DNA of 32,000 bases from Geobacter metallireducens GS-15 (GTDB taxonomy: Bacteria; Desulfobacterota; Desulfuromonadia; Geobacterales; Geobacteraceae). The DNA is taken from contig NC_007517.1 of NCBI RefSeq assembly GCF_000012925.1, forward strand, positions 2,790,001-2,822,000, in the 5' to 3' direction. Below, in pieces: positions 3,898 through 20,955 of the stretch. The first letter of the stretch is position 1. Every line of letters starts with the position of its first letter. Position numbers and translations under genes: made by a program. A model generated the notes under the pieces. That model was not told the DNA's origin and did not search any database. It saw nothing but the letters and a program-made list of their open reading frames with translations.

Positions 3898-4550
3898 GCC
3901 TGATACTCGATGCACTGAGAAAAATGGAGCAGGAACGCAAGGCCCGCCAGGGTGGCGGCATTGACATCCGACCGGATGTGCTGGGGCATACCCGTATCGA
4001 ATCCGCAGGGAGGTCATGGGGAAGCAAGCCCTTCATCCTCGTTGCCGCCGGCATCGTCCTCCTGGCGGCGGGCGTCGGGACAGGCATCGTGCTGAAGAAG
4101 GGAACCGAAGGTGAAAAACCGGAACAGTCCCGCTCCGTCGACCGGAACAGGCCACTTCCCGTTGAGGAGGTGACCTCTGTCACAGTCCCTTCCCCCCCAC
4201 CCCTCACGCCCACCCCAACGGAAGCGCCACCGGCTGCCATACCGGCGAAACCGGCAGCGCCCCCAGCACCCGTCGCGGCACCGGCTCCGGCGCCGAAACC
4301 GGTTCAGCGCTCTGTCGCAGCGGAGCAGCCGGCACCTTCCGAGTATCCCGGGGCGAACCTCACCGTCTCGGGCATTGCCTGGCAGGAGGAGCGGAGCCTG
4401 CGGCGGGCCGTGGTGAACGGGAACCTTGTGGGAGAAGGGGCCGAGGTTGCCGGCGCCCGGGTGGTCGAGATCGGCGAGCGGCGCGTGAAATTCTCTCAGG
4501 GTGGCCGGACCATCAGCGTATCGCTTTCATCTCCGTTCCAGGGGCGTTGA
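3894..4550 (+). CDS. gspB: GspB/ExeB-like type II secretion accessory protein
   Basis: N-terminus MSLILDALRKMEQER, one TM segment, a Pro/Ala-rich linker, and a C-terminal GIAWQEERSLRRAVVNGNLVGEGAEVAGARVVEIGERRVKF motif typical of the T2SS protein B domain. ATGA overlap with gspA. Confidence 0.75.
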   Translation: MSLILDALRKMEQERKARQGGGIDIRPDVLGHTRIESAGRSWGSKPFILVAAGIVLLAAGVGTGIVLKKGTEGEKPEQSRSVDRNRPLPVEEVTSVTVPSPPPLTPTPTEAPPAAIPAKPAAPPAPVAAPAPAPKPVQRSVAAEQPAPSEYPGANLTVSGIAWQEERSLRRAVVNGNLVGEGAEVAGARVVEIGERRVKFSQGGRTISVSLSSPFQGR

Positions 4551-4573
4551 CTGGAAGAAGACGCGGTTGAGCG

Positions 4574-5380
4574 TTACCTGTTCCCCTTCTTCCGGGTGGG
4601 GCGCTCGAAGCGGCTGACGGGAATGGTGATCCCCTTCTTTACGTCGCCATAGTCCACATTGACCGCCGAGGGGATATCGCCCCCAAAGGTTGCGTAGACA
4701 GTCCCCTCGGCGGGTTCCCCACCGCCGTAGACATCCCTCACCTTCAGATAATACACCCCGCCCGCCGCGACCCGCAGAAGGTAGTTTCCCTCCTTGCCGG
4801 ACCGCTCCGAGACGAAAAGCGGCTTTCCCACCATTGTTGGCGAGGTGAACGCAAAGACGATGACCCCCTCAACGGGTTTTCCATCCCCATCGACGATTGT
4901 CCCTTCAATGGCGGTAAACCCCGCGGGACGTGCCGCTGCCGTTTCTTTGCCAAAGGGACGAACGCCGGCAATGGTCCCGGCGCCGGCCGTTTCCCCACCC
5001 TTTACGGTGAACGTCGCAGGCATTCCCTTGGCATCGGCGGCAACAAGAAAGAGCTCCCCATCCTTCGGCGGACCGATCTCCTTGCGGTTGTTCCGCTTGA
5101 TCGCCGCCAGGTAGTAGGCGCCCGCCTCCACCGCGACCGAGAACCGGCCGTCATCGTCCAGATCCTCCACATAATCGGGAACCAGCCAGTACCGGTCCGG
5201 GGCCGGCGGCGGACCGGCGCCCCGCCTGAACAGCACAACCGAGCCGTTAGCCAGCGGATTTTCCCCCTCGCCCAAAACCCGTCCGTTCAGCGTTCCGGTC
5301 TGCACCGGACCGGCCGCTACGGCGCCACTCGCCACAAGCAGACCGAGAACCGCTCCCCACAGCAGCCTGAAAATCATCAT
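4574..5380 (-). CDS. secreted protein with two tandem CarboxypepD_reg (transthyretin-like) domains
   Basis: The track ORF starts at 5581 and overlaps the giant gene. The ATG-ATG at 5380 is preceded by GGGGAGG and gives the signal peptide MMIFRLLWGAVLGLLVASGAVAAG. There are two repeats of the G-x-V-x-(G/D)-x-(G/D/E)-x-P-(L/V)...G-x-Y-x-L pattern (GTLNGRVLGEGENPLANGSVVLF..GAYYLAAI and IEGTIVDGDGKPVEGVIVFAF..GVYYLKV). Confidence 0.75.
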   Translation of the reverse strand: MMIFRLLWGAVLGLLVASGAVAAGPVQTGTLNGRVLGEGENPLANGSVVLFRRGAGPPPAPDRYWLVPDYVEDLDDDGRFSVAVEAGAYYLAAIKRNNRKEIGPPKDGELFLVAADAKGMPATFTVKGGETAGAGTIAGVRPFGKETAAARPAGFTAIEGTIVDGDGKPVEGVIVFAFTSPTMVGKPLFVSERSGKEGNYLLRVAAGGVYYLKVRDVYGGGEPAEGTVYATFGGDIPSAVNVDYGDVKKGITIPVSRFERPTRKKGNR

Positions 5381-5420
5381 TGCCTCCCCGGTGTATGGCC
5401 CACACGGCCCATGAACATTC

Positions 5421-8400
5421 CTATTTGCAGTTGCTGTCGCCCGGCACATAGGCCTGGGTCGTGGCTGACGCGGTGTTGCTGTAAGGCGATTTATCGCTGC
5501 CCCGATAGGCCCGCACCCGGTAGGTATAGCTCTTGAGGGGTTCGATGCCAATGGCATCGACATAGGTGGTAACGTTGGCACCCACCGTGGCCGTCTTCAC
5601 CCACTTGTCGTTCCATGCCTTGACCTCGATTTCGTACCCCTCTTCATCCGATGCCATGTCGGCCCAATTCAGCCTGATCGTGAAGGCATTGAGGGGGGTG
5701 GCGGTCAGGGTCTGGGGCTGGGCGGAGATGGCCGTCCCGCAGGCGATGTTCGTGTAGAGCGCCTCCCAGCCGGTGGTGCAGGCAGCGGTTTTCTCGGCCT
5801 TGACGCGGTAGCAGTACTGGATCGACGGGGTAAGGCCCGGATGCGTGTAAATCGCCGTCCCCCCCGCAACGGTGGCGATCTGCGTTGCGCTGGAGCAGTC
5901 ACCATTGTTGCACCCGTAGATGACGAAGCGGGTCTCGTCGGGGATCGGGTCGCCCCAACCGAGCAACAGCGAGGTATCCGTTGCCGGCGTGACGGTCAGG
6001 ACACCCGGCGCAACGGGAGCGGGTGTGGTTGCTGTGGCGGTGGCGCTGGCCGGCCCCGTGTACCCGGCGGTGAAGGTATACCCCGCCGACTGCTCCTCGG
6101 CGCCGACGGTTGCCGACGGCTCGGTTGCCGCGTACTTGCGCACCCTGATCCAGTCCCAGTCCGTGGCGTAGGGCTGGTCGTTGGAGGCGTCGGTATCATA
6201 GCGGCGCCCCAAGACGATGGGCTCCGCCGCCACGCCGTTGTTGACGTTCCCCGCGTTCCAGTAGAGGACGCCGGTATCGAAGTTGGTCGCCTGCATATTG
6301 ACCCACGACGCATCTATCACGGCCATGGAGTAGAGCATGTTTGCGGTGGTCGTCGGGGTTCCCCCCTTGGCGGTGTAGGAATTGTTATTGATAAAGTGGA
6401 CATAGGCGGGGTGCTCAAGCCACCCCACGTTATTGTACGACCCGGCAGAGAACCCACCGATGATCTGTCCGTCGATGGCAAACGAGGTGGTCTTCGCCTT
6501 GATGTCGAGAATGACTCCCGGCGAATAGCTGGTTTTGGATGTCAGTCGGCCCGTCACGTTGGTGCCGTGGAGATAGCCGCCGGAGACCGAGAAGCCGGTG
6601 CCGTCGGTGACCGTCCATTTGGTCGTGTCAATGGCGTTGTCGGTGAAATCATCGAAGAAGTCGAAGACGAGAGCGCCGCTGGCGATGCTTTCGGCGTTGG
6701 GATTCCCGTAGTAGAGATGGATGGTGCTGCTGGTCCTGGTCTTCACCCAGACCGTGGCGGTGGAGCTGTCGGTCTTCTTCTCGATCCAGTAGGGGAGTTC
6801 CTGGTTGGTGGCGGGATCGAAGAAGCGGATATCCGAGAAATCGGCTTTCATGCCGGCATCATAGGCAACCGTCATCTTTGTCTGGAAGTTGGGCTGGAAG
6901 TTGGCAATGGTGATCGGCTTGCGGCGGGTCCACGAACCTCCCCCGCCAGAGGAGAGCCCCACGTTCACCGCCTTGATCTGGTAGGTGTATGCGGTGCCGG
7001 GGCAGACACCGGTGTCCTCGTAGCTGGTGGCGTGACCCGGCGAATAGCCAACGAGCGAGAAGTTGCTGCATGGGTTCCCCATACACCGCTCAATCCGGAA
7101 ACCGGTGTCGGAGGGTGAATTGTCGGTCCAGCGCAGGGTGACGGAGGTACTGCTGGATGCGGAGGCGGTCAGACTGGTGGGCGCCAGGACCGTCGTGGAT
7201 GCCGAAACGATGCCGTTGGTGTTGTAGGCGCTGTAGGAGGTGCAGGATGCCGTCCGCTTGGCATGGAGCCGGTACCGGTACGTGGTGTCGGGGAGAAGCC
7301 CCACGTCATTGTAGGACGTGGGGCCCGCGGGAAGCTCGATGGTGTCCGCTCCGCTGAAATCGCACGTGGCGCCGCTGCAGCGCTCGATGACGAAGTTGGT
7401 CTCGTCGTTGCTGGCGTCGGTCCAGGTCAGGTTGATCTGGGATTCGCTTCCCCTTGTGGCGCTGAAGCCGGTCGGGGCCGCGATGGTCGGCGTGGTGATC
7501 GACTTGGTGGCGCTCGGCTGGCCGGTGTAGAGCCAGTCGGAGGTATAGCAGCCGCCGGCCTGCTCTTCAGCCCCGAGGGAAACCGTGGGAATGGCGGCGG
7601 CATAGCGGGAGGTGATTTCCTGGGCGGTGAGCGCGCGGTTGTAAATCCGCACCTCGTCTATAAGGCCGTTGAAGTAGCGGCCGGGATAGTCGAGGACACC
7701 GACCGCCAGGTTGACGGAAGAGAGATTCGGCAGATAGGGGAGTGTCGTGGCCCCCACCTGCTGGCCGTTCACGTAGAGCGTTGCCGACTGGCCGTTCAGG
7801 ACCGCAGCCACGTGGTTCCAGGCGTTGAGGGTGGCCGTGGCGCCGCTTCCCGGCACATAGTCGTTGCACCAGGTCGGCATGCTGGGACGGCCGCTGTTCT
7901 GGATGCTCAGGGCGAAACCGAGGCCGTTGCAGCCACGGCTGCTCCAGGAAACGATGCCGTTGTATGAAGCGTCGGCATAGACCTTGGGATAGATCCATGC
8001 CTCCACCGTCGCGACACTACCAGTCGGCACGTTGGGGGCCGCCCGGTTGGCCCAGGCCCCGCCACCGTTCAGGCTGAGGGCATTGCCGTAGGGGCCGCCG
8101 CTCACAACACCGTAGGGAGCGCTGAAACCGTTCATGGTCAGGTCGTTACCGGCGCCGCTGAAGTCCTTCGTGGTACCGGTGGTGGTCCCGGCATTTTCAT
8201 TGAAAGGAAAGTAGGCCATGAGGCCGGAACCGAACACCCCAGATTGGGAACCGACAGCCAATGCCGACGGGTTGCCATAATACAGATAAATGGAAGCCGT
8301 TTTGCCGGTCTTGAGCCACAAGGTGGCCGTGGCGCCGTTGGTCTTGCTCTCGATCCAGTAGGGGAGCTCTCCACCGGTGCCTTGATCGATGAAGCGCAGG

Positions 8401-11400
8401 TCGTTGAAATCGGCCTGCATGTCGGCATCGTAGGGGATGGTCAGTTTCACGAGGAAATCCGGCTGGAAGTTCGCAATCGTCAGGGGAGCGCGCCTGCTCC
8501 AGCAGCCGCCGCCGGCGGAGGAGAACCCTTCGTTGACCGGCCGAACCTGGTATGTGTAGCTCGTGCCGCTACAGACGCTTGAATCGGTATAGGAAGTGAC
8601 GCCGGCGCTGACCGAACCGACCTCGCTGAAGGTGGAGCAGCCGGCATCCTGGCACCGTTCGATCTTGAAGGAGGTTTCCGAGAAGGTGGTGTCGGTCCAC
8701 GAAGCCGCCACCTGGGTGCTTGAGGGCGTGGTGAGGGTCAGGCCCGTCGGAAGCGGGACCGTGGTGGCAACCTCCTGCTCGGCGCTGTAGGGGGTATCCC
8801 AACCGCACCCGCCCCCCTTGTAGGCCCGCACGCGGTAGCGGTAGGTCGTGTTGGGAAGGCGTCCGTAGTCGGTGTAGCTCGTCACGTTGGCGGCGACCGT
8901 CGCGATCTGGCTGAACGTCGTACAGCCGGTGCCGGTGCACCGCTCGATCTTGAAGCCGGTTTCGTCGCTGGTGTTGTCGGCCCAGCCAAGGACGACGGAT
9001 ACCTCGGACTGGGCAGTGGCCGTGAAGGCCGATGGTGCCTGGGGATCGGAGAGGGTGGCGGGAACCGCGGCGGTATAGGTTGCAGGCCAGCCGGTGACCC
9101 ACGGTTTGATGGACTTCACCCGGTACATGTACGTTCCGGCGCAGGCGGTGGTATCGCTGTAAGTTACGGTAGCAGTGGCATTCTGGGGAATGGTCACCGG
9201 GAAGCCGCTGTCAAGGGTGGTGAAGTCGCAGTTGAGCCCCTCACACCGCTCGATCTGGAATCCGTCCTCGTTGGTGGTGGTATCGGTCCAGGAAAGGTCC
9301 ACGCGGGTGCCGCTCACCGCCGTCACCAGGCCGGCCGGTGGCGCGGGGGTCGAGGTGCTCTTGCAGACCACGTCGGAATATGCCGAATCCCCCGTGGGGA
9401 TCAGCGTCTTTATCCGGTAGCAGTAAGTCTGGGCAGCATCCACCCCCCGGTCCACATAGGATGTCGTATTGGCAGCGGACGTGTCGATCTGGACGAAGTT
9501 GCTGCATCCGGCGCCGGTGCAGCGCTCGATGCCGAAGCCGGTTTCCGACCCGGAGTTGTCGCTCCAGGCGAGCGTTATCCGGTCCACTGCAAGGGGCGTC
9601 GTGTCAAGCAGCGGGAGGACTGCCTGGTAGTTGCTGAGCGCCGCCGCCCCCGTGGCCGTATGGTTGACGGTAAGGGGGATGCGGACGGCAAACGTTGCAC
9701 CGCCGAGGGTAAAGGGGCCATACTCCTTCGTGCCAGCGGTGGCGGTCGGGGCAACGGCAGCAAGCTTTCGCACCAGAACCCAGTACCAGTCGGTCTGGTA
9801 TGCCTGGCCGCCGTAATAGTCCCCGTAATAGGTCAGGCCAAGACCGAGAGGCTTATTGTTGATGGAATAGCTCTTGGACATTGGACTTATGTACCACGCG
9901 CCGGTGTCCCAGTTGTACCCCTGGATCGTCGTAGTGGCGCCATCGGTGCTGTATATTGAATAGCCCATGTTGTTGGCCGGCACCGAGGTGGTGGTCACGG
10001 CGGTAATCCATTCGCCGTATAGGTTATACCCGCCGTGGCTGGGCCCCACCGAGATGCCGAAGTAGTCGTAGGTCCCGTTGTAGACACCGCCCACCATGTG
10101 GGTGTTGGCAGCCAGGGTCGTCGTCTTGACTTTGAAGGTGGCGAGCATGCCGTTAAGCATCTTGAACGTTGACACCAGCCTTCCGCTGCTGTTGTTCCCC
10201 CGCAGGGTCCCGTTCTGGACAGTGAAGTTACCGGCGCTCCCAAGGGTCTGGGTCCACTTGGCGCCGTTGATGGCAGTGTCGGTGAAGTCGTCGAAGAACT
10301 CGAAGGTGGCATCGCCGTTGTCAACGGAGGGCGCAGTGGTGTTGCCGTAGTAGTAGTAGAGGGTCTTGGTCCCCACGGGGATGGAGGAGACTTTCTGCCA
10401 GATTCTGGTGCCTGTGGTGTTGCACTGGAGTTGCTGCACCCACTGGCTGAGAAGCGTCCCGTCACTCTCGGTGGCGCGGATATCCTCGCAGCCGGTCGTA
10501 ACGGCGGGGCTGACGGCAAAGGCCGCCGGCGGCAGGACCGTCGTCTGGGCGGTGGAGGTGACGCTCTCCAGCTCCCAGCCGCAGGATGCCGTCTTGAAGG
10601 CCGCGACCTTGTACGTGTAGCTGGTGCCGGGGGTCAAGCCGGTGTCCTTGAACGATGTGGTATTTGCGGGAAGATCGCTGCCGACCTTGCTGAAGACGGA
10701 ACACCCTGCGCCCGCACAGCGGTAAATCCGGAACCCGGTTTCATCACTGGTGGTGTCGGTCCATGCCAGATCGATCTGGACCTCAGTGCCACGGCTTGCC
10801 GTAAACCCAGAAGGGGGCATGGGGGTTGGCGTTGTCACGCTACGGGTATTACTTGCTAGCCCGTCCCACATGATGGGGAAGGTACCGCCGAAAACCGCTT
10901 CCTCCCCGAGTGTCACTGTGGGCTCCGGGGCTGCGAACTTGCGAACCCGCGCGTTGTCGAGCTTGAATACCTGGTTGTAGTTGGCGAAGCCCACCTTGAA
11001 TGATGGAGCCGTGCTGTAAGTGCTCGCATAGAAGGAGGTGGCGTCGCTGGAGCTGGTGCCGTGATAGTAGTTGGCCCCCGTAGTCGGCAAGACTTCGAAC
11101 CGGAAGTATTGCCACACATCCGAAGAGATCGCCTTCTTGTTGTCCCCGCGGCTGTTTCCATCCTCGTAGACCGCCAGGCGGTTCCCGCCGCCGTCATAGA
11201 TCGGGTAGGCCGCATAGGCGAAATCGGTGTAGCTGACGTCGGCGGTGGTCGACTTGATACCGGGCATCATATATTGGCCGCCCGAGCGGTAGTGGTTCAC
11301 CTCGAAGACAAAGGGACGGCTGAAGTTCGCAACGGAGTACATCCCCGTGGACCAGCTGCCTGGGCCGCCGCTCGACAGGAACTCGCCGCCGGTTTGTGAG

Positions 11401-14400: not shown

Positions 14401-15944
14401 TTGCGCTCGATGCGGAAGCCGTCCTCGTTGGTGGAGTTGTCGGTCCAGTCGACCTTGACGGACGTGTTGGAGAGGACCGTCGCGGTCAGGTTGCCCGGCG
14501 AATTCAGGCTCCCGGCGTCCAATACCACCTGCCAGTAGTCGTAGTCCGATGCGCCGGCGGTCCAGACATCGGACCATCCCCCAACAACCACCACGAACTC
14601 GTTGTCCGTGGTCTTGATGCCGAGCCCCACCGCCTTGTCGCTCTTACCTGCCGTCCCGTTGAAGGCCGTGTGCCAGAGCTCGCCGGCACTGGCGGCTCCG
14701 TTCTGGTACTTGATGCAGAGCATGTCGGTGGTGCCGGCACCCGTGAGGGTGTAGCCGCCCACATAGACGTTACCGCCGGCATCCAAGACGATGTCGGTGC
14801 CGAAGTCGTGCCCCCCTCCCCCCGAATCGTAGAGCTTGTCCCACGCCTTCGTGCCGTTGGTCGAATCATACCGGATGACGACGAGATCCTCGTTCCCGGT
14901 GAGGGTGGTGGCATACCCCGTCACATAGACGTTTCCCCCTCCGTCCAGCGCAAGGGCGGTCGGCTCGTCGTCCATGTTGGTCGGTCCGTTGTAGGTAGCG
15001 CTCCAGAGCAAGGCGCCATTGGTCCCGTTGTACTTTGCCGTGTAGATGTCGACGTTGGTGCCGTTATTGACCGAGGCGGCAACGACAACGTTCCCCGAGC
15101 CGTCCACCCTCACCTTCCGTCCCGCGTCGGCATTGGTGCCTGCCGAGCTGTCGCGGTTTTCCCAGAGCTTGGTGCCGGCGTAGTCGTACTTGATGGTGAG
15201 AACGTCGAAATCGGTGCCGTTCCACGACTGCCCCGTCACCGCCACTCCCCCCGGCCCCGTGGCTATCGCCGCCAGCTTGTCCGTGCCGTTGGCTGTTCCG
15301 TTCCAGGTGGCGATCCAGAGGGGGGTACCGTCGGGGTTCGGTCCGTTCACGCCGAACTTCAGGACGATGTAGTCCTCGTTGCCGGACGCGTTCTGCACAG
15401 AGCCGCCCACATAGACGTTGTTGAGCCCATCAACGGCGATGGCCGTGCCGATGTCGTTGCCGCCGGCCGGAGCGTTATAGGTATTCTCCCAGAGCTTTGC
15501 ACCGTCGCTTCCCCGGTACTTGACCGTGTAGATGTCAAAGTTGCTGCCGTTCCAGGCAAAGCCGGTGACGATGGCGTCATTGTTGGAGTCCACGGCGATG
15601 GCAGTGGCTTGGTCGGAGCCCCCCGCCCGGTTGTAGGAGGCGCGCCACGCTACCGTGCCGTCGGGATTGAACTTCACGGTCCAGTAGTCGTCATCGGTCA
15701 GGCCCGCAAGGTTACGGTAGCCGGTAACGATGAGCCGTCCGTCACCATCCACTACCGACGCCTTTGCCTCCTGCTTCCCCGCCTGGGGGGTGTCACCCGC
15801 ATCCCGGAGCTTGTCGCCGCCTGCGCCGAAAACCGGTACCGCCATGGACGCCACAAAGAACAGCAGCAAAGCCAACCGTGAAATAGCACCGGCTGCCGTG
15901 CCACGAACCAATTGTCTTAACGCATATATCATCGCAATCACCAT
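5421..15944 (-). CDS. giant secreted/cell-surface protein (~3,500 aa): 2 SBBP beta-propellers, 14 FN3 domains, 4 DUF2341 + ConA/LamG-like modules
   Basis: Uninterrupted ORF. The track start at 16181 overlaps the cytochrome gene. Plausible starts are ATG 15944 (overlapping the cytochrome stop) or ATG 15932 (GGTGA 5 nt upstream). Signal peptide: ..LRQLVRGTAAGAISRLALLLFFVASMAVPVFGAGG. Domain motifs are listed in the findings. Stop is TAG at 5421-5423. Confidence 0.9.
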   Translation of the reverse strand: MVIAMIYALRQLVRGTAAGAISRLALLLFFVASMAVPVFGAGGDKLRDAGDTPQAGKQEAKASVVDGDGRLIVTGYRNLAGLTDDDYWTVKFNPDGTVAWRASYNRAGGSDQATAIAVDSNNDAIVTGFAWNGSNFDIYTVKYRGSDGAKLWENTYNAPAGGNDIGTAIAVDGLNNVYVGGSVQNASGNEDYIVLKFGVNGPNPDGTPLWIATWNGTANGTDKLAAIATGPGGVAVTGQSWNGTDFDVLTIKYDYAGTKLWENRDSSAGTNADAGRKVRVDGSGNVVVAASVNNGTNVDIYTAKYNGTNGALLWSATYNGPTNMDDEPTALALDGGGNVYVTGYATTLTGNEDLVVIRYDSTNGTKAWDKLYDSGGGGHDFGTDIVLDAGGNVYVGGYTLTGAGTTDMLCIKYQNGAASAGELWHTAFNGTAGKSDKAVGLGIKTTDNEFVVVVGGWSDVWTAGASDYDYWQVVLDAGSLNSPGNLTATVLSNTSVKVDWTDNSTNEDGFRIERKLTSEGIWAEVGTVGANVTTFTDTGLTANSTYYYRVRSYNALNGSSNPSDEISVITLYVNYLAPTWNYVFNSSDNSEDYAEAIAVGPDNNPVVTGYSLATLTGFDYYTVKLDHTTGALLWSERYNDVDSELDIAKSVVVDGSNTAIVTGYSSLYYAPAARNINSVFTLKYPAAGGIPLWEGQYNGPGGIDDRARAIATAVDGSNNVAVVGYGKNAANNDDIYLLKYAATPPLDGFGKAIPAWSATPYDGGGNDYPSAVAFDKDGNIVITGYRHNGINYDIYTAKYNGATGVKIWDHILDGAGHGDDYGQSLAVDAVGNVYVTGSTRNAAGNDDIILVKYDGKAVPTASRVIWQKSYDGTTAGNPNADDKGITVKYDLIDDTVVVAGTTLTGTGDHDFIIIRYSSAGNVVWQKVHLRPSSDDYATAMAMDVSGNVSVVGYTGPASGLTTDAMAVKFDYAGNLLAATIYNGAANGYDQALAVTVNSLGETLVAGYTTNATGNADYLVFKGDGTPLQASSPFTASPFYTKADLAWTDTSTGEDGFTIERQVGNCTSSNPWQLLTTTAANTTAYSDTGLNVGEEYCYRVRPFKSGQPDQRWIERDIVLTSPPPPSVVTPVAANTTTVNLTWQDNTTGETGFRIFRCTGSTVSCSAADYAEIGSVASNVTTYSDTGVTAATTYTYKVLSYKTADWQSQFSTPASATTPTPTAPTGLTATRGSEGQIDLAWSDSNNDESGFKIERCTGSGCSTFTQIDTVAASATSYSDIVAVQPDTLYRYQIRAYKTSAAGWNGPYSGVAEATTTSAAPSLTSATAADTTTVSLAWTDTAGSETGYNVERCLGTTCAEQDYSVVVLTAPSATSVSDASACNSTTYTYRVRAVNQGLSRGNGGTWSRKVPLAIANFQPYFQTKVVIPYDADMKADFTDIRFYDETTQREIPYWIESRTNSTTATFWIKTGGFNTISLYYGNGGATGAGNGPLVFELFDGFASAAIDTSKWTTSGAYYSQTGGEFLSSGGPGSWSTGMYSVANFSRPFVFEVNHYRSGGQYMMPGIKSTTADVSYTDFAYAAYPIYDGGGNRLAVYEDGNSRGDNKKAISSDVWQYFRFEVLPTTGANYYHGTSSSDATSFYASTYSTAPSFKVGFANYNQVFKLDNARVRKFAAPEPTVTLGEEAVFGGTFPIMWDGLASNTRSVTTPTPMPPSGFTASRGTEVQIDLAWTDTTSDETGFRIYRCAGAGCSVFSKVGSDLPANTTSFKDTGLTPGTSYTYKVAAFKTASCGWELESVTSTAQTTVLPPAAFAVSPAVTTGCEDIRATESDGTLLSQWVQQLQCNTTGTRIWQKVSSIPVGTKTLYYYYGNTTAPSVDNGDATFEFFDDFTDTAINGAKWTQTLGSAGNFTVQNGTLRGNNSSGRLVSTFKMLNGMLATFKVKTTTLAANTHMVGGVYNGTYDYFGISVGPSHGGYNLYGEWITAVTTTSVPANNMGYSIYSTDGATTTIQGYNWDTGAWYISPMSKSYSINNKPLGLGLTYYGDYYGGQAYQTDWYWVLVRKLAAVAPTATAGTKEYGPFTLGGATFAVRIPLTVNHTATGAAALSNYQAVLPLLDTTPLAVDRITLAWSDNSGSETGFGIERCTGAGCSNFVQIDTSAANTTSYVDRGVDAAQTYCYRIKTLIPTGDSAYSDVVCKSTSTPAPPAGLVTAVSGTRVDLSWTDTTTNEDGFQIERCEGLNCDFTTLDSGFPVTIPQNATATVTYSDTTACAGTYMYRVKSIKPWVTGWPATYTAAVPATLSDPQAPSAFTATAQSEVSVVLGWADNTSDETGFKIERCTGTGCTTFSQIATVAANVTSYTDYGRLPNTTYRYRVRAYKGGGCGWDTPYSAEQEVATTVPLPTGLTLTTPSSTQVAASWTDTTFSETSFKIERCQDAGCSTFSEVGSVSAGVTSYTDSSVCSGTSYTYQVRPVNEGFSSAGGGCWSRRAPLTIANFQPDFLVKLTIPYDADMQADFNDLRFIDQGTGGELPYWIESKTNGATATLWLKTGKTASIYLYYGNPSALAVGSQSGVFGSGLMAYFPFNENAGTTTGTTKDFSGAGNDLTMNGFSAPYGVVSGGPYGNALSLNGGGAWANRAAPNVPTGSVATVEAWIYPKVYADASYNGIVSWSSRGCNGLGFALSIQNSGRPSMPTWCNDYVPGSGATATLNAWNHVAAVLNGQSATLYVNGQQVGATTLPYLPNLSSVNLAVGVLDYPGRYFNGLIDEVRIYNRALTAQEITSRYAAAIPTVSLGAEEQAGGCYTSDWLYTGQPSATKSITTPTIAAPTGFSATRGSESQINLTWTDASNDETNFVIERCSGATCDFSGADTIELPAGPTSYNDVGLLPDTTYRYRLHAKRTASCTSYSAYNTNGIVSASTTVLAPTSLTASASSSTSVTLRWTDNSPSDTGFRIERCMGNPCSNFSLVGYSPGHATSYEDTGVCPGTAYTYQIKAVNVGLSSGGGGSWTRRKPITIANFQPNFQTKMTVAYDAGMKADFSDIRFFDPATNQELPYWIEKKTDSSTATVWVKTRTSSTIHLYYGNPNAESIASGALVFDFFDDFTDNAIDTTKWTVTDGTGFSVSGGYLHGTNVTGRLTSKTSYSPGVILDIKAKTTSFAIDGQIIGGFSAGSYNNVGWLEHPAYVHFINNNSYTAKGGTPTTTANMLYSMAVIDASWVNMQATNFDTGVLYWNAGNVNNGVAAEPIVLGRRYDTDASNDQPYATDWDWIRVRKYAATEPSATVGAEEQSAGYTFTAGYTGPASATATATTPAPVAPGVLTVTPATDTSLLLGWGDPIPDETRFVIYGCNNGDCSSATQIATVAGGTAIYTHPGLTPSIQYCYRVKAEKTAACTTGWEALYTNIACGTAISAQPQTLTATPLNAFTIRLNWADMASDEEGYEIEVKAWNDKWVKTATVGANVTTYVDAIGIEPLKSYTYRVRAYRGSDKSPYSNTASATTQAYVPGDSNCK
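6132..6932 (-). repeat. DUF2341 + ConA-like module 4
   Basis: WTRRKPITIANFQPNFQTKMTVAYDAGMKADFSDIRFFDPATNQELPYWIEKKTDSSTATVWVKTRTSSTIHLYYGN, then LVFDFFDDFTDNAIDTTKWTV...TDWDWIRVRKY. Confidence 0.7.
7602..8504 (-). repeat. DUF2341 + Laminin_G_3 (LamG) module 3
   Basis: WSRRAPLTIANFQPDFLVKLTIPYDADMQADFNDLRFIDQGTGGELPYWIESKTNGATATLWLKTGKTASIYLYYGN, then a classical LamG_3 signature ..LMAYFPFNENAG..ALSLNGGG..TVEAWIYP..WNHVAAVLNGQSATLYVNGQQVG..YFNGLIDEVRIYNRALTAQEI. Confidence 0.75.
9762..10499 (-). repeat. degenerate DUF2341-like + ConA-like module 2
   Basis: CEDIRATESDGTLLSQWVQQ..TRIWQKVSSIPVGTKTLYYYYGN, then ATFEFFDDFTDTAINGAKWTQ...TDWYWVLVRKL. The N-terminal half of DUF2341 is missing. Confidence 0.55.
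10917..11732 (-). repeat. DUF2341 + ConA-like lectin/glucanase-fold module 1
   Basis: WSRKVPLAIANFQPYFQTKVVIPYDADMKADFTDIRFYDETTQREIPYWIESRTNSTTATFWIKTGGFNTISLYYGN, then LVFELFDGF..IDTSKW...LDNARVRKF. Confidence 0.7.
12882..14219 (-). repeat. intragenic repeat block: second SBBP-type beta-propeller (7-8 blades)
   Basis: DYYTVKLDHTTGALLW, VFTLKYPAAGGIPLW, DIYLLKYAATPP, DIYTAKYNGATGVKIW, DIILVKYDGKAV..VIW, DFIIIRYSSAGNVVW, DAMAVKFDYAGNLL. Confidence 0.7.
14532..15764 (-). repeat. intragenic repeat block: seven SBBP-type beta-propeller blades (propeller 1)
   Basis: Seven recurrences of D-(Y/I/V/L/M)-x-(V/I/T/C)-(V/L/I/A)-(K/R)-(Y/F)-...-G-...-W, each followed by a D..GN.YV.G strand. Examples: DYWTVKFNPDGTVAW, DIYTVKYRGSDGAKLW, DVLTIKYDYAGTKLW, DIYTAKYNGTNGALLW, DLVVIRYDSTNGTKAW. 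Confidence 0.7.
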
Positions 15945-18900
15945 TGTGTCTTGGAGTTCCAGGAGTTGTCGGGCCACACGCCAGTCGGGTGACAGTTCAC
16001 GCGACTCTGCCCTTTCCCCTTCGGGAAGGTGCCGCTCCCCTCGCCGGCGGCGCCGCCGGAAGCCACCCGGCCGCGGTGTTTCACATCGAGGCAGTTGGTC
16101 TGCATGAGCCGCGGGAGGCTCGAAACGTGGGGAACGTGGCACTTGGAGCAGGTGAATGTGTGCATGTCGTTCTTGCCCCACCCTTTCACCGTCTGGTGAA
16201 CGCGGTCAACGCCTTTCCACGGCTTCGTCTTGTCAGTGCCGGCAGTCAGGTTCGACTTGGGATGGCACCGCATGCAGAGACCGGCAAACTTCGTGTCTTC
16301 TTCCGTGATCCTGCGCCAGCCGAAAGTCCCCTGGTCAAGGTTGACATAGGGGGTCGGTGTCGGGTTCTGGTATCCTCTGCTACCCCGGCTGCCGGTGATC
16401 GCTCCGTCCAGGGGGAACTCTTCCTTGTAGGGAGAGGTCATCCAGGTCCCCTTCAGAAGCGGGACGGCATAGGCCTGATCGCTGCCGAGGGACGGGCTGA
16501 CCCCGTGGGGGTCGTGGCAGGGGGTGCAGAGACCGTCGATGGTACCCATGGCATTGTTCGTAAGGGAGGACGATGCCTTGAAGTGCCCCCCTTTGACCGT
16601 GATGCCCTTGAACGACGTCCGCTTCATGTATCCCGCCTGCCCCTGGCCGAACTTGTCGGTATCGCGATACCCCCTCACCGAGGAGATTGCGCCGAAGGTG
16701 GAGAAATAACCCCAGGGGGTGATGCCGCTGTTGCGGGTCAGGTGGCAGTCGAAGCACTGGCCGGCGCCGGTGTTGTAAGGGTTGACCGAATTGCTGTCCG
16801 AATTCGACGACGCCTTGTAGGTCATGGCGTAGCCCCCCTTGCCCGCCTGGGTCTCCTTCAGGTTGCCGCCGTTCTTGGTGCCGTTGAAGGTGACGTAGCT
16901 CGTGGTTGTGCCGTTGGCCTTGGAGCCGTGGGAGCTGTGGCAGTCGTAACACTGGACCGCCTGGCCACCGCCGCGGGTATTGGGTATGTCGCCGTCGTAG
17001 CCGGTCTGGGTGCTCCAGCCACCCCGGTTTGCCGTCGCATTGCCATGGGCGGAAAAGGCCTTGGTCTGGTTCTTCCTGGCGGCATTGGCCGTGCCGGCGT
17101 ACTTGCCCCAGGTCGTGGTGCCGGTCTGCTGGTAGCGGGCGGCGATGCTGGAGCGGTCCCACGCATACTGACGCGGGGTCTTGCAGTCGCCGAAGACATC
17201 GGTGTCGTTGTTCTGGTCGCTGTGGCAGCCGATGCAGTGGTTGGTAACCTTGGCCGCCTCGGCCCGCTCCGAGGCGGTCCCGATGTTGGAGGCCAGGAAC
17301 TGGATGGCCGTGGTGGTGTTGTAGAAGGTGGGGCGGACCCTCGGCTTCCAGACCACCAGGTCCACCTTGGCGTTCTTCACCGACGAGTAAATCTTGTAGT
17401 TGTACCCCTCGTGGTAGTCCACATCGATGAGCCCCTGGGGGGTGGCCTCCCAGTGGCACTGGTAGCAGTCGGTGTTCTTAACCTCGCCGTTGGCCCGCTG
17501 GACGTGGTGGGAGTTGGAGCGCATCTGTCCCATGATGTCCATCCGCTTGCCGATGGTTCCCGAATGACACTTGGTGCAGTCCCGCGGCAGGCCAAAGGCG
17601 GTATGCTTCGGGATCGGCTTGGCGTTCTCGTGGCAGCTGTTGCACGCCTGCTTGTTGGCGTGGCTGTCGGCGAAGCGGTGCTCGTGGCAGGTGGTGCAGA
17701 CCCGGCTCACGTTGTGGCCGTCGCCGCTCACGCTGGTGAAGTGTCTGGCGGAAGGTGAATGGCAGACGTTGCAGATGCCGTTGTAGGGCGCCGTGGTCCG
17801 GGCATAGTCAAGACCGCTCTGCTTCTTGGTGAATACCACGTCGGCACGGGTTTTCGGGATACCGAAACGGCCGTCGGAGGTGGTGGCCACCTTGTCGTGG
17901 ATCATGTAGATATTGGAGTCCCCATGGGGGTCATGGCAGTCCCAGCAGAACTTGCCCCCCTTCCAGCTTCCCTGGTAACTGGAATAGGTACCCCATATGG
18001 GTGACTTGGTAGCTGAAGGGATCTTCGTCCACCCGCCCGAATCCTTGAATGCACGGTAGTGCTTATAGCCGAAATGGCCGGCCGAAGCCCGGGCCCTCTT
18101 CGGCTTGATGAAGCGGGTCCCCGACATCAGCGGATCGAAGCCGAGCGAGTACTTCAGGGGGTCATTCTCAGGAGCCCGGTGGCATTCGGTGCACTGGCCG
18201 CCGCTGTCGTCGTCATGGCACTGGAGGCATACCCCCATCATCAGGTACTGGTTCCTGACGTCATCCTTCTGCTCCGCCGTCCAGGTTCCGGCATTGACGT
18301 CGTGCCCCTTGTGGGTGCCGCTGGCGAAGGTGCCGCTGTCGGAGTCATGGCAGTTGACGGCCGTGCAGCCGGTCACCTGGATGTGACTGGGAAACTGCGT
18401 TACCGTGCTCCAGTTGCTCTGCCTGAAAACGATACCGACGGCCGTGGCCTGGGGGGCCAGGGAATCGGCCTGCCCCACGTGGCAGCCGATGCACTCGTCG
18501 TCGCTGCGGGTCATGTGGCAGTAGACGCACTCCTTCACGAAGCGGCGCTCGTACTGGCGGTGCATTCTGAGCCGGAAGGGATTGGTGGCGTCCTTGTGCA
18601 GAGCGTTGTTGTCGTGGCAATACCAGCAGGGGTTGCCGGGGAAATTTGCCGCCGGGTTCCCCGAAACCGGATAGGCGCCGGCAGAGGAGTAGCGGCCGTG
18701 GCCGGACACCGTCCACTGGGTGAGGCTGATGCGCGCCTGGGTGCCGTTGAATGAGTTGTAGTCGTCCTGGTCCGCACCGGTCGTCCCGTGGCAGCCGAGG
18801 CAGGTGACCGCCCCCGTCACCGCCCCCCCCCAGACCGGGTCGGTTCCGCTGGTATGGCACTTGGTGTTGGAGCAGGTTTTGGCAACCGGGTTGTAGGAGC

Positions 18901-20503
18901 CTCCATCCTTGAAGACCACGTCCTTGGTCTTGTTGACGTGGTAGGTGCCGTTCAGGTGCGAAGACTCCCCCATGCTCCCGATGGGAATGCCGTTGCTGTG
19001 GCAGGAAGCGCAGTCCCCGATAACGGTGGCGGCATGGCAGTTGTCGCAGCTGAAATTCGTTTCCGAGTGGCGGGGATGGGAGTTGGCGCGGGGAGTACCC
19101 GCCCCCTGGTTGGCGAACATCGGCATCGCCTCCATCCACTCCTGGCCAGTCGGGAAGGCGTACGCACCAAGCGCCCCAAAACGTGAGGGGAGAGTCCACA
19201 CCTTCCCGCCTTCTATGCGTCCGTCATGGCAGCCGGTGTCAGAACAGCCGCCCCGCAGGTGGCCATGGCAGTCGTTGCAGCCGGCTTTGGTGGCGGTCCA
19301 GGGGAAGGCGCGGACGGTCTCGGGATCGGTGGTGCCGTCGCTGTGGCAATAGACATTGGAACAGACCTTGGTTGTTGAATCATAGGACGCATCCGTTCGC
19401 CCCACGATGTTCCACTGGGATGCCATCTTCACATCCCTCGTGCCGTTTACATGCTTCGTCGTATCGATGATGTTACCGGCACTGTCAGCCGTGGCACTGT
19501 GGCAATAGGAGCAAGGGTACTTCCGGATCCAGTGGGAGCCCACCAGCTTATTGTGGCCGTTGCTGCTCATGTTGAGATAGGGGGAGCACTTTGTTTTGTC
19601 GCTGTCCCAAGTGCCTCCCACGCTGGTGCAGTTGGCCTCGGTGCTGTCGGAGCTGCGGCCCCGGTGGCACGAATAGCACTGGATGGTGCCCGAATCGGAC
19701 CAGCGCGCTACCGTGAACGGTGCACCGCCGCGACCATCGCTGTGACAGTAGAGATTGGCGCAGGTTCCGTTGCGGGGCGGGTTCTGGCTCGGCAGATAGC
19801 CGGGATAGGTGAGGACTCCGCTGTACGTGCCGCCGCTGTTGGGCGTTTTGGTGAACTTTACGACGAGCGCGCGCTTGGCGACGCTCGTGGCGTGGGCAAA
19901 GGGACGCGCCTCGGCGGTGTGGTCCGTGTGGCACGAGGCGCAACTCCCCGTCCCGGTTCCCAGGTAGTCGCCGTGTTTCTTGCCGGAACCAGAGACCGCC
20001 GGGTGGTTTCCGTCGCTTGGCGCCGCGCCATGGCAGGCGGAACAGCCGGTCGGGGCAGCAAGGGGCGAAGAGCCCCAAATCGGGGTCGCCGCCTCGAAGT
20101 GGCAGTTGATGTTCGTGCAGCTTCCGGGGGTGGGAGTTGCGCTCTGGGGGGATGAGGTGTGATTGCGGAAGGCGGTTGCAAGGGGTGAATTGTTGATGCG
20201 GCTCGAAATCCTGATGCTGCCGTTGCGGTGAGAAGCAGTGTACGAAGCGCTCCCCGGATGGCATTGGGAGCAGCTGCCAGGCACGGCGGAGGCGTCCATG
20301 TGGGTTCGGTGGTTCCCCTGAAAACCGCCCGAGCTTATGTTGCGGTAGGCATTGTCAGCGGGCCGGTAATCCACCGGGCTCGAAGAGCCGTGGCAGCTGT
20401 AACATTCCAGCGCTCCTTCGGCTGGGCCGGCCAGTGACAAGACGCCGACAAACAATAGCATCAACGACGAGCCAACTCTCTGACAAGTGCTCTTGCCTAC
20501 CAC
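15938..20503 (-). CDS. giant multiheme c-type cytochrome (~1,520 aa; 27 CXXCH + 6 CX4CH motifs)
   Basis: The track ORF begins with TTG at 20524. The in-frame GTG at 20503 follows GGGGAGGGG by 5-6 nt and gives the signal peptide M-VGKSTCQRVGSSLMLLFVGVLSLAGPAEGA; ATG 20461 is another option. The first heme motif CYSCH is at 20390-20404 and the last CSKCH at 16136-16150. Stop is TGA at 15938-15940. Confidence 0.9.
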   Translation of the reverse strand: MVGKSTCQRVGSSLMLLFVGVLSLAGPAEGALECYSCHGSSSPVDYRPADNAYRNISSGGFQGNHRTHMDASAVPGSCSQCHPGSASYTASHRNGSIRISSRINNSPLATAFRNHTSSPQSATPTPGSCTNINCHFEAATPIWGSSPLAAPTGCSACHGAAPSDGNHPAVSGSGKKHGDYLGTGTGSCASCHTDHTAEARPFAHATSVAKRALVVKFTKTPNSGGTYSGVLTYPGYLPSQNPPRNGTCANLYCHSDGRGGAPFTVARWSDSGTIQCYSCHRGRSSDSTEANCTSVGGTWDSDKTKCSPYLNMSSNGHNKLVGSHWIRKYPCSYCHSATADSAGNIIDTTKHVNGTRDVKMASQWNIVGRTDASYDSTTKVCSNVYCHSDGTTDPETVRAFPWTATKAGCNDCHGHLRGGCSDTGCHDGRIEGGKVWTLPSRFGALGAYAFPTGQEWMEAMPMFANQGAGTPRANSHPRHSETNFSCDNCHAATVIGDCASCHSNGIPIGSMGESSHLNGTYHVNKTKDVVFKDGGSYNPVAKTCSNTKCHTSGTDPVWGGAVTGAVTCLGCHGTTGADQDDYNSFNGTQARISLTQWTVSGHGRYSSAGAYPVSGNPAANFPGNPCWYCHDNNALHKDATNPFRLRMHRQYERRFVKECVYCHMTRSDDECIGCHVGQADSLAPQATAVGIVFRQSNWSTVTQFPSHIQVTGCTAVNCHDSDSGTFASGTHKGHDVNAGTWTAEQKDDVRNQYLMMGVCLQCHDDDSGGQCTECHRAPENDPLKYSLGFDPLMSGTRFIKPKRARASAGHFGYKHYRAFKDSGGWTKIPSATKSPIWGTYSSYQGSWKGGKFCWDCHDPHGDSNIYMIHDKVATTSDGRFGIPKTRADVVFTKKQSGLDYARTTAPYNGICNVCHSPSARHFTSVSGDGHNVSRVCTTCHEHRFADSHANKQACNSCHENAKPIPKHTAFGLPRDCTKCHSGTIGKRMDIMGQMRSNSHHVQRANGEVKNTDCYQCHWEATPQGLIDVDYHEGYNYKIYSSVKNAKVDLVVWKPRVRPTFYNTTTAIQFLASNIGTASERAEAAKVTNHCIGCHSDQNNDTDVFGDCKTPRQYAWDRSSIAARYQQTGTTTWGKYAGTANAARKNQTKAFSAHGNATANRGGWSTQTGYDGDIPNTRGGGQAVQCYDCHSSHGSKANGTTTSYVTFNGTKNGGNLKETQAGKGGYAMTYKASSNSDSNSVNPYNTGAGQCFDCHLTRNSGITPWGYFSTFGAISSVRGYRDTDKFGQGQAGYMKRTSFKGITVKGGHFKASSSLTNNAMGTIDGLCTPCHDPHGVSPSLGSDQAYAVPLLKGTWMTSPYKEEFPLDGAITGSRGSRGYQNPTPTPYVNLDQGTFGWRRITEEDTKFAGLCMRCHPKSNLTAGTDKTKPWKGVDRVHQTVKGWGKNDMHTFTCSKCHVPHVSSLPRLMQTNCLDVKHRGRVASGGAAGEGSGTFPKGKGQSRVNCHPTGVWPDNSWNSKTQW

Positions 20504-20601
20504 GCCACCCCTCCCCCATTGCAATGCAAAGCACAGATTACGTCAAATGACTGAATATCACGCTCTTGTTTACAAGCGCCTCAGATCATTAGTGAATATC
20601 T

Positions 20602-20629
20602 CTTATATACCTAATAATCCAATCAACAA
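20602..20629 (-). promoter_or_regulatory. sigma-70-like promoter candidate for the cytochrome operon
   Basis: On the - strand: TTGTTG (20629-20624), 16-nt spacer, TATAAG (20607-20602). It sits inside the AT-rich island, about 95 nt upstream of GTG 20503. Confidence 0.3.
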
Positions 20630-20738
20630 GTTATTGACACTATCCCTAGCCAAATAGCCGGCAACGTGGGTGAGCCACACACAAAAATATGCAATATCAC
20701 CAAGTTGTATCTTGTCTGTAAATGTTTGAATGAAAAAA

Positions 20739-20755
20739 ATGCAATAGTCGAGCCC
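20739..20755 (-). promoter_or_regulatory. sigma-54-like -24/-12 candidate for the cytochrome operon
   Basis: The - strand reads GGGCTCGACTATTGCAT (consensus TGGCAC-N5-TTGCA). GG/GC spacing is correct and the -12 element TTGCA is perfect. It would give a leader of about 225 nt. Confidence 0.3.
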
Positions 20756-20816
20756 ATTCTCGAACAATAAAGGTGAAGATCTCCCCGGCGCGCAGAAGGA
20801 GATCAGTAGAAGGAAT

Positions 20817-20844
20817 AAAAAAAGGAGCCGCTCGGCTCCTTTTT
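20817..20844 (-). terminator. rho-independent (bidirectional-looking) terminator ending the rmlB-rmlD-cupin transcript
   Basis: AAAAAAA-GGAGCC-gctc-GGCTCC-TTTTT. On the - strand the stem is followed by seven U residues. Confidence 0.85.
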
Positions 20845-20955
20845 CAATACACCTATTTTCCCTTGGGATACATGTCGCTGGGGGGAGCGACGCCCCGTCC
20901 TTCAACCGGTCGATACTATGCGGCTACCGTCCTGGCGAGGAGACGCCGTTGTCGC

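Follow-up and report, generated by a model that had tools for sequence, protein, structure and literature searches.

We identified a two-gene unit in Geobacter metallireducens GS-15 in which a multiheme cytochrome gene (Gmet_2470) is followed by the gene for a giant protein of beta-propeller and fibronectin type III (fn3) domains (Gmet_2469). The unit lies in a 32,000-nucleotide stretch of the chromosome (contig NC_007517.1, positions 2,790,001 to 2,822,000), here called the window, and all positions below are those of the window. The cytochrome and the giant protein are a dedicated, co-inherited unit. We favour the reading that they are two subunits of one exported electron-transfer complex, to which we give slightly less than even odds (a probability of roughly 0.45).

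A cytochrome gene and a giant partner gene inherited together

Three minus-strand open reading frames (ORFs), Gmet_2470, Gmet_2469 and Gmet_2468, fill positions 20503 to 4574:

15938 to 20503, minus strand: Gmet_2470, cytochrome, GTG start, 1,521 amino acids, 163.5 kDa
15938 to 15944, minus strand: cytochrome/giant junction, 7-nucleotide stop/start overlap, ATGGTGA
5421 to 15944, minus strand: Gmet_2469, giant protein, ATG start, 3,507 amino acids, 371.8 kDa
4574 to 5380, minus strand: Gmet_2468, small protein, 268 amino acids

At the junction the minus strand reads ACA CAA TGG TGA, with the ATG of the giant gene inside it and a second ATG at 15932. The giant stop codon (5421-5423) and the ATG of Gmet_2468 at 5380, preceded by GGGGAGG, leave a gap of 40 nucleotides. 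The cytochrome matches ABB32695 and the giant protein ABB32694, each at 100% identity. The locus was placed at Gmet_2468-2470 through LptD (Gmet_2474) and a chemotaxis receptor (MCP, Gmet_2478) listed in the supplementary tables of the genome paper. We rejected the identification of the cytochrome with Gmet_0571 or Gmet_0581, 34-heme proteins studied by deletion, both of which sit in a cluster with ResB/ResC-like genes.

A first survey covered five cytochrome homologues on long contigs, from Geotalea daltonii, Geobacter sp. DSM 9736, Citrifermentans pelophilum, a Nitrospirae metagenome-assembled genome (MAG) and a Geobacter MAG. Each of these is followed directly, on the same strand, by the gene for an SBBP/fn3 protein of 2,000-4,500 residues, and the flanking genes are unrelated. 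A wider survey with one genome per species, searched with the cytochrome alignment, gave 79 more loci. The partner was sought by tblastn with giant residues 1-480 and 600-1130 wherever more than 1.6 kb followed the cytochrome stop, and both propeller regions were found immediately downstream on the same strand in 77 of 77 such loci, at 30-84% identity. These loci span Geobacterales, Desulfobulbia and Nitrospirota MAGs, several groups at the level of phyla, lie among otherwise unrelated flanking genes and include several paralogous copies within a single genome. An adjacency of this extent is far beyond a chance neighbourhood. The junction itself recurs as well: the first in-frame ATG of the partner overlaps the cytochrome stop by 7 nucleotides, as in the window, in about 30 of the 77 loci, and in most others the partner starts within a few tens of bases of that stop. 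Adjacency and overlap together point to co-translation of two products that are needed together, and the cytochrome and the giant protein are very probably co-translated.

The partner is conserved at both ends, with a middle that is free to vary. Its N-terminal layout is kept across the loci: an eight-bladed propeller, an fn3 domain, a second eight-bladed propeller and then at least 10 fn3 domains. At the other end, the terminal fn3 domain and a tail of the form TPAYxxGDxTC, with 1-3 residues after it, are shared by about 43 of the 51 complete partners, from Geobacter to Nitrospirae. Among these 51 complete orthologues the minimal partner has about 2,000 residues, with two propellers and about 10-11 fn3 domains, and is free of DUF2341 and LamG modules. 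Other partners carry one or two DUF2341 modules, several Laminin_G_3 domains or insertions of about 1,000 residues of other kinds. DUF2341 occurs in 35 of 77 partners, and the layout with four DUF2341-plus-LamG pairs seen in the window is confined to the closest relatives of G. metallireducens (loci L006, L007 and L025). The DUF2341/LamG modules are thus lineage-specific insertions, which rules out the multi-lectin part as the core of the tethering mechanism proposed in an earlier, sequence-only reading of this DNA.

The module also behaves as a replaceable cassette between conserved flanks. In G. hydrogenophilus DSM 13691 (L008) the region corresponding to window positions 657-25409 has the same flanks at 91-97% amino acid identity, with lptD, rmlB, rmlD, the cupin gene, gspA, gspB and a major facilitator superfamily (MFS) gene in common. 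Between these flanks, the cytochrome is 69% identical and the propellers are 41-48% identical; the partner has 2,051 residues without DUF2341 or LamG, and the small gene is absent. In the cytochrome tree the copies of the two species fall in different clades. Cassette replacement of this kind is often seen in genes for exposed surface structures.

Anatomy of the two proteins

The domain map of the giant protein was drawn with hidden Markov models built from its own repeats:

Residues 1-41: signal peptide
Residues 42-478 (14511 to 15821, minus strand): propeller 1, eight-bladed, SBBP/delta-60 type, conserved core; 32 strands (8 x 4) in the AlphaFold2 model
Residues 481-570 (14235 to 14504, minus strand): inter-propeller fn3 domain
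Residues 575-1020 (12885 to 14222, minus strand): propeller 2, eight-bladed, conserved core; from AlphaFold2 and tblastn
Residues 1025-3290 (6075 to 12872, minus strand): variable middle, 11 fn3 domains interrupted by four DUF2341 modules, as in the next eight lines
Residues 1025-1411: four fn3 domains
Residues 1395-1691: DUF2341 (1395-1490) and LamG-like (1490-1691)
Residues 1707-1802: fn3 domain
Residues 1787-2080: DUF2341 (1787-1879) and LamG-like (1880-2080)
Residues 2109-2490: four fn3 domains
Residues 2474-2790: DUF2341 (2474-2569) and Laminin_G_3 (2576-2790)
Residues 2820-3013: two fn3 domains
Residues 2997-3290: DUF2341 (2997-3092) and LamG-like (3092-3290)
Residues 3310-3507 (5424 to 6017, minus strand): two terminal fn3 domains (3310-3496) and the conserved tail
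Residues 3497-3507: tail, ending in GDSNCK (...TQAYVPGDSNCK), with the Cys3506 codon at 5427-5429

Matches to Pfam and NCBIfam comprise four DUF2341 domains, fn3, Laminin_G_3, SBBP and delta-60 repeats, and the protein has no heme motifs. The propeller assignment rests on PF06739 (33.2 bits against 20.5) and TIGR02608 (78.4 against 76.5), and that of the inserted modules on PF10102 (280 bits, four stretches) and PF13385 (98 bits). AlphaFold2 modelled residues 42-1120 from 53 aligned sequences with a predicted local distance difference test score (pLDDT) of 89.9, in the order 32 strands (8 blades), a seven-strand fn3 domain, 32 strands (8 blades) and a second fn3 domain. When the propellers were compared with the PDB by Foldseek, only generic relatives were found, among them CylK (E = 1e-18, 20% identity), tetrathionate hydrolase and the propeller-plus-fn3 ectodomains of ROS1 and Sevenless, so that no function can be read from the fold. 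Residues 2577-2781, in the Laminin_G_3 module, match PDB 4qvs, an S-layer-domain protein.

A short ERC-x4-C cysteine pair occurs in most of the giant protein's fn3 domains (window positions 5424-12872), for example at 1254/1259 and 2142/2147; almost no cysteine is present in the two propellers or in the first and the last fn3 domain. A parity count of the cysteines, made for an unpaired one, gave no clear answer.

The cytochrome has 27 CxxCH and 6 CxxxxCH motifs, 33 in all. Its heme number is put at 33-34, the range in relatives being 31-55. It belongs to the CxxxxCH/CxxCH cytochrome family TIGR01904 (99 bits against a cut-off of 27, in four stretches) and matches PF09698 (GSu_C4xC__C2xCH) at 58 bits against a cut-off of 21.7; further domain matches are Cytochrome_C7 and, weakly, MtrC/MtrF II/IV (34.8 bits). 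The cytochrome has one N-terminal hydrophobic segment, and its multiple CxxCH motifs are kept in the homologues, as expected for a Sec-exported multiheme c-type cytochrome. In these homologues an AxA-type signal end immediately precedes the first CxxCH, and lipobox-like starts were found in just 4 of 114. In alignments of 20 and 83 sequences nearly all heme-motif Cys and His residues are invariant, and conservation extends over the entire length to a conserved C-terminus, WPDNxWNxVTPW. The motifs are denser in the first 1,020 residues (26) than in the C-terminal 500 (7), and the C-terminal third is the most conserved.

The C-terminal region forms about 200 sequence clusters at 50% identity, and the family, of roughly 600 members, extends to subsurface Nitrospirota and Desulfobulbia MAGs. 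In many representatives (P0399, P0405, P0416 and others) the region corresponding to the C-terminal 500 residues sits mid-protein in proteins of 1,900-2,200 residues, none of which runs on into propellers. A phmmer search of the cytochrome against PDB sequences gave no relevant match, and the protein has no relative of solved structure.

Five cysteines of the mature cytochrome lie outside the heme motifs (C292, C306, C1107, C1471 and C1504). C292 and C306 are likely to form a disulfide pair. C1471 and C1504-H1505 (window 15989-16093) are invariant and 32-74 residues apart among homologues, in an element near the C-terminus of the form NC[LIVM]D..H[RK]G...CH; this may be the annotated 34th heme site, or something else. 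The remaining one is without an obvious partner inside the cytochrome:

17183 to 17185, minus strand: codon of cytochrome Cys1107 (FGDCKTPRQYAWD), a conserved cysteine outside the heme motifs

Position 1107 is Cys in all 80 family loci with a match except three (L029, L075 and L076, with Y, Y and S). These are exactly the three loci whose partner has kept the tail and lost its cysteine, and all 43 partners with a Cys tail pair with a Cys1107 cytochrome. The covariation of Cys1107 and Cys3506 may reflect an intermolecular disulfide or a shared site.

The third gene and the surroundings of the unit

Gmet_2468 encodes two transthyretin-like domains (CarboxypepD_reg/DUF4198-like) with neither Cys nor His, and its family is narrow, with 140 matches of about 265 residues. 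A homologue is present in 19 of the 51 loci that contain the end of the giant gene, and absent from 32. It lies directly downstream of the giant gene in 11 of the 19, one gene further in 4 and upstream in 4; the intervening gene, where present, encodes a CarboxypepD_reg protein with a NosD-like beta-helix. Clustering of all flanking ORFs made this CarboxypepD_reg/beta-helix group the most recurrent neighbour (20 loci). Members of the Gmet_2468 family also follow a different 2,050-residue cytochrome in Geomobilimonas luticola and Geobacter sp. AOG1, and two other family members sit among TPR and glycosyltransferase genes. Since Gmet_2468 is absent from most loci and accompanies other cytochromes, it is not specific to the unit; it is a general, optional accessory of giant cytochromes and not a defining third subunit. 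The synteny that the sequence-only reading expected of all three families was thus found for the cytochrome-giant pair in 77 of 77 loci and failed for the small gene, found in 19 of 51 and also beside other cytochromes. Of the dedicated module proposed there, the conserved part is the two-gene unit.

The different giant-cytochrome cluster occupies positions 2503-20534 of the G. luticola locus (L085) and 2484-20464 of that of Geobacter sp. AOG1 (L086). It begins with an NHL propeller, followed by the 2,050-residue CxxxxCH/CxxCH cytochrome, the Gmet_2468-family protein and an 815-residue NosD-like beta-helix protein. A second CarboxypepD_reg protein, ResB-like, NicO/DsbD-like and TPR genes come after these, and a further NosD-like gene, PqqD and two radical-SAM/SPASM genes close the cluster.

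Upstream of the cytochrome we found the following features:

20818 to 20845, minus strand: intrinsic-terminator-like hairpin, 12-bp stem with 5 GC pairs followed by a T-run, ending the upstream cupin (PMI-type) gene
20504 to 20817, minus strand: lower-GC leader/promoter region of about 310 nucleotides between the hairpin and the cytochrome GTG
20722 to 20693, minus strand: sigma-70-like site TTTACA-N18-GATATT in the leader
within 20504 to 20817, minus strand: Shine-Dalgarno sequence GGGGGAGGGG ahead of the cytochrome GTG at 20503

The hairpin is the predicted 5' boundary of the unit. No Rfam family or riboswitch was found at gathering thresholds in the whole window. A permissive scan of 20400-21000 yielded nothing beyond chance matches under the threshold, which lay on the terminator, and a leader RNA element was rejected.

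The window neighbours of the module are rmlBD, lptD, the cupin gene, the gspA/B-like genes and an MFS transporter gene. The cupin gene (20956-21336, minus strand) stands alone between rmlD and the terminator; the match of its 126-residue product to GMP/PMI enzymes is limited to their C-terminal mannose-6-phosphate isomerase part (TIGR01479 positions 361-467). Downstream, the convergent genes at 2209-4550 (plus strand) encode a T2SSB-like (GspB-like) protein and a GspA-like protein with AAA_22 and PG_binding domains, the T2SSB match being weak (23.3 bits, under the Pfam cut-off of 28.4). A GspA-like/GspB-like pair beside the module was also seen in L005, L008, L009 and L041, and the upstream genes of L005 differ. 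A functional link to these neighbours was considered and rejected: the pair accompanies only 4 of the 77 loci besides the window, which is too rare for a link to secretion to be claimed, and we treat it as local synteny.

Everything that the sequence-only reading described in this region proved accurate: the three same-strand ORFs with their stop/start overlap, 40-nucleotide gap and GGGGAGG, the 33 heme motifs, the upstream terminator with an AT-rich promoter island (here the stem with its T-run and the lower-GC spacer), and the convergent gspB, though its T2SSB match is below the Pfam cut-off. The same is true of its description of the products as having Sec-type signals without a lipobox, a second transmembrane segment or a C-terminal sorting signal. 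Each of the three products has one N-terminal hydrophobic segment and no other, and from this all three look to be Sec-exported without a membrane anchor. Neither a Pfam/NCBIfam match to a C-terminal sorting domain (type IX secretion system (T9SS) C-terminal domain, PEP-CTERM, LPXTG and similar) nor a C-terminal hydrophobic segment was found in the giant protein.

An extracellular location of the pair is favoured by the size of the partner, the C-x4-C pairs of its fn3 domains, which are typical of extracytoplasmic proteins, the T9SS-bearing relatives of its propellers, the match to an S-layer protein and the behaviour of the module as a cassette. The relatives in question are SBBP-propeller proteins of Bacteroidota, which often carry the T9SS sorting domain PF18962, so that this propeller type is evidently used on secreted proteins.

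All three genes are transcribed in co-cultures (PMC10989804). In the same study Gmet_2470 and Gmet_2468 shift together in one comparison (2.75-fold and 2.94-fold), and Gmet_2470 expression in co-culture with G. sulfurreducens exceeded that in co-culture with each of three Methanosarcina species, by factors of 5.7, 2.1 and 1.7 (PMC10989804).

A proposed electron-transfer complex, its alternatives and known systems

From the sequences we infer a physical complex, a disulfide, an extracellular location and a role in electron transfer, and the favoured model can be set out as follows. Translational coupling on one message would yield the two subunits in nearly equal amounts, the cytochrome being a single-polypeptide heme wire and the giant protein its dedicated non-heme carrier. 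The two eight-bladed propellers and the C-terminal fn3 domain with its Cys tail would hold the cytochrome, the tail probably being disulfide-bonded to Cys1107. The long fn3 chain would form an extended stalk, or scaffold, on the cell surface or within the matrix, and the variable middle would adapt the complex to the contacts of each lineage, here through four DUF2341-plus-LamG lectin-like modules; the LamG-type modules of the G. metallireducens protein point to glycans as possible contacts. Gmet_2468 would be an optional structural accessory shared with other giant cytochromes. The unit would in this way link outer-membrane conduits with insoluble acceptors or partner cells, by electron transport across a distance of tens of nanometres.

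A broader claim would make this a third architecture for extracellular electron transfer in diderms, alongside conduits of porin and cytochrome and filaments of polymerised cytochromes. It would consist of a single-chain cable of 31-55 hemes, clamped by a disulfide and non-covalent contacts to a propeller/fn3 stalk whose exchangeable middle decides the contacts, the whole being a swappable cassette across Geobacterales, Desulfobulbia and Thermodesulfovibrionia. We put this forward tentatively and consider it somewhat unlikely.

Several observations weigh against the two-subunit complex. No export route is evident that would take a 372-kDa protein and a 164-kDa holo-cytochrome across the outer membrane, and clustering of the flanking ORFs of about 75 loci gave no recurrent gene for a porin, for secretion or for anchoring. 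The location of Gmet_2470 is given as 'Unknown' in PMC10989804. The AlphaFold2 model of cytochrome residues 322-1521 is poor (pLDDT 61, and Foldseek against the PDB gave 0 matches with this low-confidence model), so the wire shape is assumed from the density of heme motifs. The three loci that lost both cysteines form one clade in the cytochrome tree and thus represent a single evolutionary event, for which reason the covariation is suggestive and no statistical proof. Four partners are without the Cys tail while their cytochrome retains Cys1107; two of these look frameshifted and two carry other C-terminal domains. No fusion of cytochrome and propellers, of the Rosetta-stone type, was found among 149 family representatives, and the lengths of cytochrome and partner are uncorrelated (r = 0.03). 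A partner acting as a length-matched sheath along the heme wire was rejected on this last ground.

The absence of fusions and the uncorrelated lengths would also fit two co-expressed but independent products, with the giant protein as a general biofilm or matrix adhesin, the cytochrome as a free or loosely bound extracellular electron carrier and the operon shared for surface growth. Giant fn3/propeller proteins without cytochromes do exist, among them many SBBP-repeat proteins of other phyla. However, co-regulation alone fails to explain an adjacency with overlap that holds for every one of the loci, at great phylogenetic distance, and for each paralogous copy, and it leaves unexplained both the conserved ends of a partner with a variable middle and the matched loss of two cysteines. 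We regard independence as unlikely.

The three-subunit redox-adhesin of the sequence-only reading, in which the heme wire is tethered, through the lectins of the giant protein, to mineral or matrix polysaccharide and anchored by the small transthyretin-like protein, appears quite unlikely. It has in its favour the tight packing of the three genes here, with a Shine-Dalgarno sequence before the third, the four DUF2341-plus-LamG modules, the position of the Gmet_2468 family directly downstream of the giant gene or one gene further in 15 loci (11 and 4), and the NosD/pectin-lyase-type beta-helix genes, encoding a carbohydrate-binding fold, that recur beside the modules. Yet the small gene is missing from 32 of 51 complete loci and accompanies other cytochromes, its product has no hydrophobic anchor beyond the signal peptide, and DUF2341/LamG is missing in over half of the partners, including the one at the same chromosomal site of the sister species. 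Lectin tethering would accordingly be at most a lineage-specific elaboration.

A periplasmic or envelope-spanning complex, with the cytochrome storing electrons or bridging the periplasm and the giant protein as periplasmic scaffold, would sit well with products that have Sec signals only, no recognisable outer-membrane secretion or sorting signal and no conserved secretion genes nearby, and wire-like periplasmic multiheme cytochromes are common in Desulfuromonadia (PMC11492766). We hold it to be very unlikely: at 372 kDa, and with two propellers and four lectin-like modules besides its 14 fn3 domains, the giant protein far exceeds the periplasm in length, a problem that a 27-heme Geobacter cytochrome shares (350 versus 170 Angstroms; PMC11492766). 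Moreover, the propeller and LamG domains have their relatives in secreted or S-layer proteins, and module replacement between sister species fits an exposed structure.

It is equally improbable that the cytochrome is an enzyme with a catalytic centre in its heme-poor C-terminal 500 residues (the C...CH site plus Cys1107), to which the propeller protein gives substrate binding or a second active site. That this heme-poor third is the most conserved part of the protein, that it holds two invariant cysteines in an odd element with variable spacing, and that the best structural matches of the propellers include CylK and tetrathionate hydrolase all speak for it. But the Foldseek similarity is generic (target TM-scores of 0.45-0.47 for CylK, at 18-20% identity), and matches just as good were obtained with the ROS1 and Sevenless ectodomains, whose propeller-fn3 arrays are purely structural. 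A single active site would not need thirty or more hemes to supply it, and the neighbouring genes suggest no soluble substrate.

Should the two proteins prove to be a complex, this would show how a single-chain heme wire of such length is held in position outside the cell, and would explain why such cytochromes accompany giant non-heme proteins. Work on extracellular electron transfer centres on G. sulfurreducens, and no relative of the module from that species is among the matches listed. For annotation, the unit can be recognised from a CxxxxCH/CxxCH cytochrome with WNxVTPW at its C-terminus and, in the following gene, a double-propeller/fn3 protein whose sequence closes with GDxTC. The two cysteines, the two conserved ends and the natural allelic replacement between sister species offer handles for study.

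The polymerised nanowires of Geobacter, OmcS, OmcE and OmcZ, are homopolymers of small subunits with 4-8 hemes. Gmet_2470 resembles them in its closely spaced chain of c-type hemes, thought to carry electrons far from cells, and in a putative extracellular location. It does not belong with these small polymerising cytochromes: it places 33-34 hemes on one polypeptide and has an obligatory non-heme partner gene, and neither the phmmer search nor Foldseek, the latter with the low-confidence model, linked it to these proteins. The MtrCAB, PccF/PccG and Ext conduits likewise use multiheme cytochromes to take electrons beyond the outer membrane, and the weak MtrC/MtrF domain match is a further likeness. 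However, neither in the window nor at related loci is a porin gene or a periplasmic multiheme partner adjacent, and the partner here is a soluble propeller/fn3 protein, so the unit is not a porin-cytochrome conduit.

The L085/L086 clusters are closer, with a giant cytochrome of the same domain family beside a beta-propeller protein and the same small CarboxypepD_reg family. Their propeller protein is small (about 310 residues, NHL type), lies upstream and is without an fn3 array, and their cytochrome has Gly at the Cys1107 position and branches outside the family. Gmet_0556-0558 presumably form a further cluster of propeller and giant cytochrome. The giant adhesins LapA and MpIBP, RTX proteins of the type I secretion system (T1SS), have thousands of residues, Ig-like or fn3-like repeats, inserted lectin-type modules and strain variation. 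Gmet_2469 is likewise an fn3-repeat protein of several thousand residues with inserted lectin-type modules, but it has a Sec-type N-terminus, no RTX/hemolysin-type or other T1SS feature in Pfam and no ATP-binding cassette (ABC) or membrane fusion protein (MFP) transporter genes nearby. Its conserved parts are the two ends, a cytochrome always accompanies it, and it does not count among the RTX adhesins.

The pairing is seen in no solved structure, and our searches of the full-text literature found no published description of it, the genes appearing only in transcriptome tables, which agrees with the statement of the sequence-only reading that no characterised system has this composition. A recent survey of Desulfuromonadia cytochromes describes long, probably extracellular single-chain wires outside porin operons and mentions no propeller or fibronectin partners (PMC11492766). 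The genes themselves were already annotated. The features that appear to be undescribed are the conserved module of two genes, the division of its anatomy into constant and variable parts, the paired cysteines and the cassette behaviour.

The nearest concept is found in the giant cytochromes of anaerobic methanotrophic archaea (ANME), which carry 20-86 hemes and have S-layer domains (MHC-A/B) or a pectin-lyase-like domain (MHC-C) in the same polypeptide (PMC9012536). In both cases a very large cytochrome is combined with non-heme structural or carbohydrate-binding modules, which in ANME place it in the outermost cell layer, and the NosD/pectin-lyase-type beta-helix genes beside the Geobacter modules extend the likeness. 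The archaeal proteins are single fused polypeptides, often with a C-terminal membrane helix, whereas the Geobacter unit consists of two coupled genes, draws on propeller, fn3, DUF2341 and LamG domains and belongs to diderm bacterial hosts.

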